NCBI RefSeq assembly: GCF_003334305.1
Contig: NZ_QOWS01000020.1
Origin: Escherichia coli
GTDB taxonomy: Bacteria > Pseudomonadota > Gammaproteobacteria > Enterobacterales > Enterobacteriaceae
DNA: 64,000 nucleotides
Reading direction: 5' to 3' (one strand)
Shown here: positions 60,019 through 63,470 of the stretch, piece by piece
Layout: each line of letters starts with the position of its first letter
Numbering within the stretch: the first letter of the stretch is position 1
Translations under genes and position numbers: made by a program
Notes under the pieces: model-generated
Seen by the model: only the letters and a program-made list of their open reading frames with translations
What the model was told of the DNA's origin: nothing
Databases searched by the model: none

Positions 60019-61698
<1,680 letters not shown>

Positions 61699-61951
61699 TT
61701 ATCGGGCTTTTCTTTAAGGGTAGTCATTCGCTCCGCCTGGTGGGCGACAAAGCGTGCGGTGGATCACGTTTATTAACCTGTCAAAAAATATAACGCACTA
61801 ATATCCATGGAATTTATAAAAATACGGATTTCGTGTTGTTTTTCATTTTCAGAACATTCAATCCTGCTCTCGCCGCAATCATGATATGCCATTCCTGATC
61901 TGGGTAATAGGCACAGGCTATCTTATTGATAGTTTATATTCATGTAATTGA

Positions 61952-61965
61952 TTGATTCCTATCAA
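61952..61965 (+). promoter_or_regulatory. FNR-type box upstream of yhjA
   Basis: TTGATTCCTATCAA, a perfect TTGAT-N4-ATCAA palindrome ~110 bp upstream of the yhjA ATG. Confidence 0.65.
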
Positions 61966-62072
61966 AAAGCGTATCTCCCTGTTTTTTATGATGGCTTTGT
62001 CTCGCAGAGACGTTTGCAGCATTCTGGAAAATTTTCTGGGTCACAATAACTCACCACCGTGAGGGAAGAATA

Positions 62073-63470
62073 ATGAAAATGGTCTCACGTATTACCGCGA
62101 TCGGCCTGGCTGGCGTCGCGATTTGCTATTTAGGGTTATCTGGTTATGTGTGGTACGACGATAATAAACGCAGTAAACAGGCCGATGTTCAGGCATCTGC
62201 TGTCAGTGAAAATAATAAGGTTTTAGGCTTTCTCCGCGAAAAAGGATGCGACTATTGCCACACACCTTCGGCAGAATTACCCGCCTATTATTATATTCCT
62301 GGCGCGAAACAGTTGATGGATTACGACATTAAGCTTGGATATAAATCTTTTAACCTCGAGGCCGTGCGTGCGGCACTGCTGGCTGATAAACCCGTTTCGC
62401 AAAGCGATCTGAATAAGATTGAATGGGTGATGCAGTATGAAACTATGCCACCAACGCGTTATACCGCGCTACACTGGGCGGGTAAGGTGAGTGATGAAGA
62501 GCGGGCGGAAATACTGGCCTGGATTGCAAAACAGCGCGCGGAATATTACGCCAGCAATGATACTGCTCCGGAGCATCGCAATGAACCGGTGCAGCCCATC
62601 CCGCAAAAACTGCCTACCGATGCGCAAAAAGTGGCGTTGGGCTTTGCGCTGTATCACGATCCCCGTTTATCGGCTGATAGCACCATTTCATGCGCTCATT
62701 GCCATGCGTTGAATGCGGGGGGCGTCGATGGCAGAAAAACATCGATTGGTGTTGGTGGCGCAGTTGGGCCGATTAACGCGCCGACGGTATTTAACTCAGT
62801 ATTTAACGTTGAGCAGTTCTGGGATGGTCGTGCGGCAACATTGCAGGATCAGGCAGGTGGACCGCCGTTGAACCCGATTGAAATGGCGTCGAAATCCTGG
62901 GACGAAATTATTGCTAAGCTGGAAAAAGATCCGCAGCTTAAAGCGCAGTTCCTCGAAGTTTATCCGCAAGGTTTCAGTGGCGAAAATATTACTGATGCCA
63001 TTGCTGAATTTGAGAAAACATTAATTACGCCGGATTCCCCATTTGATAAATGGTTGCGTGGAGATGAAAATGCGCTGACGGCGCAACAGAAAAAAGGCTA
63101 TCAATTATTTAAAGATAATAAATGTGCAACTTGTCATGGTGGTATTATTCTCGGCGGACGTTCCTTTGAACCGTTGGGGCTGAAAAAAGACTTTAACTTT
63201 GGGGAAATTACGGCGGCGGATATTGGTCGTATGAATGTGACTAAAGAAGAGCGTGATAAATTGCGTCAGAAAGTACCCGGTTTACGTAACGTTGCTTTAA
63301 CGGCACCGTACTTCCATCGCGGTGACGTGCCGACGCTGGACGGGGCGGTGAAACTGATGCTGCGCTATCAGGTAGGCAAAGAGCTGCCGCAGGAGGATGT
63401 GGATGATATCGTAGCTTTCCTGCACAGTCTGAACGGGGTGTACACGCCGTATATGCAGGATAAACAATAA
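62073..63470 (+). CDS. yhjA: tri-haem cytochrome c peroxidase YhjA / CcpA (465 aa)
   Basis: Three CxxCH haem-binding motifs (CDYCH, CAHCH, CATCH); N-terminal membrane anchor. Confidence 0.93.
   Translation: MKMVSRITAIGLAGVAICYLGLSGYVWYDDNKRSKQADVQASAVSENNKVLGFLREKGCDYCHTPSAELPAYYYIPGAKQLMDYDIKLGYKSFNLEAVRAALLADKPVSQSDLNKIEWVMQYETMPPTRYTALHWAGKVSDEERAEILAWIAKQRAEYYASNDTAPEHRNEPVQPIPQKLPTDAQKVALGFALYHDPRLSADSTISCAHCHALNAGGVDGRKTSIGVGGAVGPINAPTVFNSVFNVEQFWDGRAATLQDQAGGPPLNPIEMASKSWDEIIAKLEKDPQLKAQFLEVYPQGFSGENITDAIAEFEKTLITPDSPFDKWLRGDENALTAQQKKGYQLFKDNKCATCHGGIILGGRSFEPLGLKKDFNFGEITAADIGRMNVTKEERDKLRQKVPGLRNVALTAPYFHRGDVPTLDGAVKLMLRYQVGKELPQEDVDDIVAFLHSLNGVYTPYMQDKQ

Follow-up and report, generated by a model that had tools for sequence, protein, structure and literature searches.

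A conserved FNR box upstream of Escherichia coli ccp (yhjA), predicted to act as a class II operator together with OxyR

Introduction

The spacer between the divergent Escherichia coli genes treF and ccp (yhjA) carries a perfect palindrome of the FNR type, which raises the question of whether this is a working operator or a chance match and, if it is an operator, which of the two genes it serves and from what position relative to the promoter. The analysis described here was performed on a 64-kb window (the whole stretch of DNA that was analysed, 64,000 bp), in which RefSeq annotation of the flanking genes identifies the locus as E. coli treF / ccp (yhjA) / gadA.

Control of E. coli K-12 yhjA by FNR and OxyR was reportedly described by Partridge, Poole and Green in 2007 (Microbiology 153:1499), and the same work is said to have assigned FNR to a class II position, downstream of OxyR. 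The dual FNR/OxyR control has since been summarised, with transcription inferred to be limited to low oxygen with peroxide (PMC10301912), and RegulonDB curation records OxyR as an activator of yhjA. In addition, ccp appears in a table of the OxyR regulon, with H2O2 as a usable terminal oxidant, and the same source summarises the work of Khademian and Imlay (2017), in which Ccp allowed E. coli to respire on hydrogen peroxide without oxygen (PMC8115020). The FNR site of ccp is thus already published, its regulation in 2007 and its physiology in 2017, and no new biology is put forward here.

The palindrome and its setting

The box lies inside the 404-bp treF-ccp spacer, between the following genes.

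61952-61965, + strand: FNR box TTGATTCCTATCAA (TTGAT-TCCT-ATCAA), matching at 10/10 specified positions, centre 61958.5
62073..63470, + strand: coding sequence of ccp (yhjA, b3518), 465 aa, RefSeq "ccp, cytochrome c peroxidase"
60019-61668, - strand: treF (trehalase), divergent from ccp, 549-aa ORF

Both FNR half-sites are perfect and are separated by the canonical 4-bp spacer, and the distance to the A of the ccp ATG (62073) is 114.5 bp from the centre of the box and 107 bp from its end. The translation of ccp contains three CXXCH haem motifs (CDYCH, CAHCH and CATCH), as expected of a tri-haem cytochrome c peroxidase. The original prediction, of a perfect FNR-type palindrome some 110 bp upstream of the start codon of the cytochrome c peroxidase gene yhjA, is borne out in sequence, distance and identity of the gene. 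CRP half-sites are TGTGA/TCACA, and those of the palindrome (TTGAT/ATCAA) rule out a CRP site by sequence. Myers 2013 also lists a predicted FNR site, TTGATAGGAATCAA, at yhjA/treF in Table S6, with a PatSer score of 14.16 (PMC3688515).

When both strands of the 64,000-bp window were scanned, the pattern TTGATNNNNATCAA matched once, against 0.08 matches expected from dinucleotide shuffles of the window, 8 of 100 of which contained at least one match. Taken alone at the scale of the window, the match is only weakly suggestive. It gains weight from its position in the treF-ccp spacer, as a perfect box arose in the shuffled 200 bp upstream of ccp with P ~0.0015.

The window is not MG1655: upstream of 61833 the two sequences are separated by a 1-bp indel and three SNPs, although the promoter region itself (61833-62072) is identical; the box corresponds to 3669296-3669309 of NC_000913.3, and the transcription start predicted below to 3669262. 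Matches to the treF-ccp intergenic region as a whole, with 95-100% identity, were obtained in 5423 of 5426 complete E. coli genomes; the GC content of the region is 40%, compared with 52% for the window.

Conservation across the Enterobacterales

A scan with the Ccp protein, using one genome per species, returned 41 loci, from which 17 representative lineages were used for all counts. In 10 genera of Enterobacterales, namely Escherichia, Citrobacter, Pluralibacter, Providencia, Trabulsiella, Entomohabitans, Hafnia, Enterobacillus, Buttiauxella and Yersinia, ccp is preceded by an FNR box that departs from TTGAT-N4-ATCAA at 0-2 positions. The box has at most one mismatch in 14/17 lineages (0.33 expected from shuffles) and is perfect in nine of the 17 (0.009 expected). 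In an ungapped, box-anchored alignment of the 17 orthologous promoters, the ten half-site columns average 1.76 bits, while the spacer has 0.44 and the flanks 0.2-0.45 bits per column, meaning that the half-sites are under purifying selection and the spacer is not. Conservation restricted in this way to the half-sites points to a protein-binding palindrome, as opposed to general sequence conservation. Together with the -10-like hexamer and the OxyR-type motif described below, the retention of the box indicates that the palindrome is a functional FNR operator of ccp, real and conserved, and not a chance match.

The start codon of ccp lies 86-122 bp from the box in most orthologs, the full range being 86.5 to 226.5 bp. 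The longest distance is that of Providencia heimbachae, with 226.5 bp to the aligned ccp start compared with ~107 bp in other Providencia, which would imply either a leader insertion of ~120 bp or the use of another start codon.

Outside the order, a Ccp homologue with 73% identity was found in Saezia sanguinis, a betaproteobacterium of the Burkholderiales. The 350 bp upstream of this homologue contain no FNR-like box with up to two mismatches, and the gene could have arrived by horizontal transfer that left the enterobacterial promoter module behind. Distant homologues in two Lachnospiraceae MAGs are likewise without the box.

The divergent arrangement leaves room for a different assignment, in which the box regulates treF instead of, or besides, ccp. 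FNR binding was reported by ChIP-qPCR in the DISTILLER study at yhjA and also at treF in the same spacer (PMC2690998), a method that cannot resolve two genes sharing 404 bp. The treF ATG is 290.5 bp away from the centre of the box, which is itself ~267 bp upstream of the sole promoter-like site on the treF strand. Moreover, treF adjoins ccp only in Escherichia and Citrobacter, whereas in the other eight genera the box is still positioned in the same way with respect to ccp. Regulation of treF was rejected on this synteny and is given a very small probability. As the module formed by the box and its neighbouring elements (described below as OxyR, FNR and -10) accompanies ccp also in genera that lack a neighbouring treF, and as the box is so distant from the treF start codon, the module is assigned to ccp. 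The promoter-like site in question, which is the only sigma-70-like match in the spacer, reads ATGACT-18-GATAAT (61698-61727, - strand), faces treF, the ATG of which follows after ~30 bp.

Within E. coli, a 40-mer spanning the box was recovered from 5423 genomes, ~1618 of them with one mismatch. Three alleles that were fetched have SNPs at 61915 (an unspecified position, N, in the OxyR motif), at 61970 or 61971 (between the box and the -10 hexamer), and at 62055 (in the leader), and their FNR box is free of SNPs. At least 80% of the 40-mer is covered in 5422/5426 genomes. The lowest-ranked genome, strain fS54a (NZ_CM176577.1), has an IS5-like element (ISKpn26-family, with a frameshifted transposase; positions 1501-2727 of the extracted locus L046) inside the FNR box, with TTGATTCCTAT at one junction and CTATCAA at the other, CTAT being apparently duplicated. 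Judged by its position, this insertion would be a natural knock-out of the FNR site.

Core promoter geometry

The position of the box relative to the transcription start was deduced from a -10-like hexamer downstream.

61987-61992, + strand: predicted ccp -10 hexamer TATGAT, agreeing with TATAAT at 5/6 positions and 21 bp downstream of the box
61999..62072, + strand: predicted 5' untranslated leader of ccp, ~74 nt, deduced from the -10 position

A hexamer of the form nAnnAT occurs 21-23 bp after the FNR box in 17/17 lineages. It reads TATGAT in Escherichia and most Citrobacter, and elsewhere TATTAT, TATCAT, CATGAT, CATTAT or GATAAT, with the weaker forms CACTAT or CACCAT in three lineages. With the start placed 7 nt after the hexamer, transcription in the window would begin at the G at 61999 (+/- 1-2 nt), and the centre of the FNR box would lie at -40.5; across the lineages the corresponding range, calculated from the -10 position alone, is -40.5 to -42.5. 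The lineages differ in the implied length of the leader, which ranges from 45 to 185 nt, yet the gap between box and -10 hexamer is constant, which ties the box to the core promoter and not to the ATG. The box is consequently predicted to occupy the position of a class II activator, ~-40.5/-41.5 from a start near 61999.

A promoter closer to the ATG would instead place the box at ~-60 to -95, in a class I-like arrangement. Such a reading draws on the 114.5 bp that separate the box from the ATG, on the start site being a predicted one, and on AT-rich hexamers in the leader such as CACAAT (62042-62047). It conflicts with the spacing in the orthologs, where the distance from box to ATG ranges from 86.5 to 226.5 bp and that from box to nAnnAT is fixed at 21-23 bp, and the alignment contains no second conserved block downstream of the -10 hexamer (0.23 bits per column). 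The class I-like arrangement is considered highly improbable, and the class II position is retained.

A generic sigma-70 scan found no promoter on the + strand of the spacer, and gives no support to the predicted ccp promoter. Such silence is expected of a class II activator-dependent promoter, because the FNR box occupies the position of the -35 element.

The OxyR motif

A second regulatory element lies directly upstream of the FNR box.

61907-61943: OxyR-type motif ATAGgcacaggCTATcttattgATAGtttatatTCAT, four ATAG-like elements spaced 10-11 bp apart, centre 61925

The motif agrees with ATAGnTnnnAnCTAT-N7-ATAGnTnnnAnCTAT at 16/20 specified positions; no other stretch of the 64-kb window scores 15/20 or more, and a score of 16 was not attained in any of 60 block shuffles. 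Its centre is ~-74 from the predicted ccp start. The first three elements are kept across genera, with the consensus ATAGg.a.A..CTAT.t.A.c.ATAG, and the fourth is degenerate (TCAT) and poorly conserved. The centres of the OxyR motif and the FNR box are 33.5 bp apart in 15/17 lineages by automatic call, and Yersinia has an equally scoring OxyR match in the 33.5-bp register (a tie). In Providencia burhodogranariea (~2310-2400 of locus L018, upstream of ccp) the centres are 44.5 bp apart; compared with 33.5 bp, the additional 11 bp would represent an insertion of exactly one helical turn, which keeps the helical face unchanged.

Together with the core promoter, these spacings bear on the remaining parts of the original prediction. 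The proposal that the site serves anaerobic control of the peroxidase is upheld by the retention of the box with ccp across genera and by the literature. Of the two explanations offered for the distance to the ATG, a long leader agrees with the predicted ~74 nt and with the conserved -10 hexamer at 21-23 bp, and an upstream, class I position does not. A second site, for OxyR, had also been suggested, as an unresolved one in the interval between the box and the ATG. The motif at 61907-61943 substantiates the existence of such a site, which is upstream of the box; control by OxyR had already been published.

The predicted leader

Two short elements were noted in the predicted transcript upstream of the coding sequence.

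61999..62011, + strand: inverted repeat GTCTCgcaGAGAC (GTCTC/GAGAC stem), at the predicted 5' end of the transcript
62061-62065, + strand: Shine-Dalgarno sequence GAGGG of ccp, in the predicted leader

Stem-loops with 5 or more bp begin at this distance from the -10 hexamer in 11/17 lineages, compared with 0-8 in other 6-nt bins; the lineages are not independent, the sequences differ among them, and individual folding z-scores are weak. It is possible, though unproven, that GTCTCgcaGAGAC forms a stabilising hairpin at the 5' terminus of the mRNA, and a conserved hairpin at the predicted +1 might provide further control through mRNA stability. Folding of the whole predicted leader (z = -0.75) gave no evidence of a structured leader or riboswitch, and an Rfam search of 61600-62200 returned no family above threshold. 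A sub-threshold hit to SAM_alpha at 62105-62197 (+ strand), inside the ccp coding sequence, scored 18.5 bits against a gathering value of 36 (E = 0.1) and is almost certainly due to chance.

A separate small hairpin, CTCACcaccGTGAG (62050-62063, + strand), has a 3' arm that overlaps the Shine-Dalgarno sequence and a loop that varies within E. coli (C to T at 62055). It was flagged on the - strand by a terminator scan, at a point where no gene ends.

FNR occupancy in vivo

The published data on occupancy of the site in vivo conflict. Set against the ChIP-qPCR signal at yhjA is the study of Myers 2013, in which the site (U00096.2 ~3667319) was classed as a "silent" predicted FNR site, with no peak by ChIP-seq of cultures grown anaerobically in glucose minimal medium (PMC3688515). 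Regions bound by H-NS flank or cover the yhjA site and an IHF region spans it, and there is no FNR peak within ~500 bp in either the wild-type or the delta-hns/delta-stpA tables (PMC3688515). In the same work yhjA is absent from the table comparing wild type with delta-fnr, and is 2-fold higher without O2 in Table S12; only five silent sites were stated to have prior evidence of regulation, and yhjA was not named (PMC3688515). Among the rows listed from Table S1, no sigma-70 peak stands at the coordinate of the yhjA site (PMC3688515).

These observations are grounds for supposing that FNR does not use the palindrome in vivo, the match being a chance or "silent" one on DNA covered by H-NS and IHF. 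To the missing peak and the H-NS and IHF enrichment (Myers 2013, PMC3688515) can be added the low GC content of the spacer (40% vs 52%) and an IHF-like core, AATCAATCAATTA (WATCAANNNNTTR; 61945-61957, - strand), that overlaps the left FNR half-site. The IHF-like core is found in only 4/17 lineages, namely E. coli, two Citrobacter and Pluralibacter, so that an IHF site was rejected as the general identity of the palindrome and any effect of IHF would be lineage-specific. Conservation across genera is limited to the FNR half-sites, FNR binding was detected by ChIP-qPCR (PMC2690998), and FNR-dependent regulation has been published. Moreover, H2O2 was absent from the ChIP-seq cultures of Myers 2013, which left the co-activator OxyR inactive. 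A chance or unused site is given very little probability.

The split between ChIP-seq and ChIP-qPCR may mean that occupancy by FNR is conditional. We infer, as a reading compatible with the ChIP data and not as a result, that occupancy or cross-linking could require OxyR, or release from nucleoid proteins. A more specific version, which is held tentatively and is rather doubtful, is that oxidised OxyR, positioned on a constant helical face with its centre 33.5 bp from that of FNR (44.5 bp in one Providencia), recruits or stabilises FNR, or displaces H-NS/IHF, such that the AND-gate (no O2 plus H2O2) would operate at the level of DNA binding as well. If true, conditional occupancy would explain why a published consensus site was scored as "silent" by ChIP-seq, even without H-NS and StpA. 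A site that was classed as silent and is clearly under selection also serves as a caution that a missing peak in one growth condition does not equate to a lack of function.

A two-input model of the ccp promoter

Taken together, the evidence makes it very probable that the palindrome is the class II FNR operator of ccp, with OxyR directly upstream, in an AND-gate promoter that starts near 61999. The sequence, conservation, spacing and linkage to ccp on which this model draws come from the present analysis, and the dependence on FNR and OxyR and the ChIP-qPCR binding from the literature. Under anaerobic conditions, a [4Fe-4S]-loaded FNR dimer would bind the box, overlap the -35 region and presumably contact RNA polymerase directly. 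Peroxide-oxidised OxyR would bind the four-element motif at 61907-61943, centred at ~-74 and on a fixed helical face. With FNR and OxyR bound together, the promoter would fire only without oxygen and with H2O2, by a presumed synergy of the two. Transcription would then proceed from near 61999, the exact start being a predicted one, through a leader of ~74 nt to the ATG at 62073.

Such a promoter, a textbook case of two inputs, would restrict Ccp to an anoxic niche that contains peroxide, and at least 10 genera of Enterobacterales share the OxyR-FNR-(-10) module together with its spacing.

Comparison with known systems

The yhjA promoter reportedly described by Partridge, Poole and Green (2007) and that of the window share the same DNA, the same gene (b3518) and the same two regulators, with no difference of substance between them.

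Class II FNR-activated promoters include narG, nirB, dmsA and yfiD, where FNR is located near -40.5/-41.5. As in these promoters, the ccp box overlaps the -35 region, and a reasonable -10 hexamer without a recognisable -35 hexamer is consistent with dependence on an activator. The proposed co-activator at ccp is OxyR, whereas NarL/NarP have this role at narG and nirB, and CRP at other class II FNR promoters. A further difference is that the ccp site was unoccupied in anaerobic glucose ChIP-seq, in which the listed class II FNR sites were occupied (Myers 2013, PMC3688515).

With respect to OxyR, ccp resembles katG, ahpC, oxyS and dps in having four ATAG-type elements on one helix face, upstream of the core promoter, and in its reported induction by H2O2. 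The motif on which the description of these OxyR-activated promoters is based is said to be that of Toledano et al. in 1994. Classic OxyR sites abut the -35 element, whereas at ccp an FNR dimer would be interposed between OxyR, at ~-74, and the polymerase.
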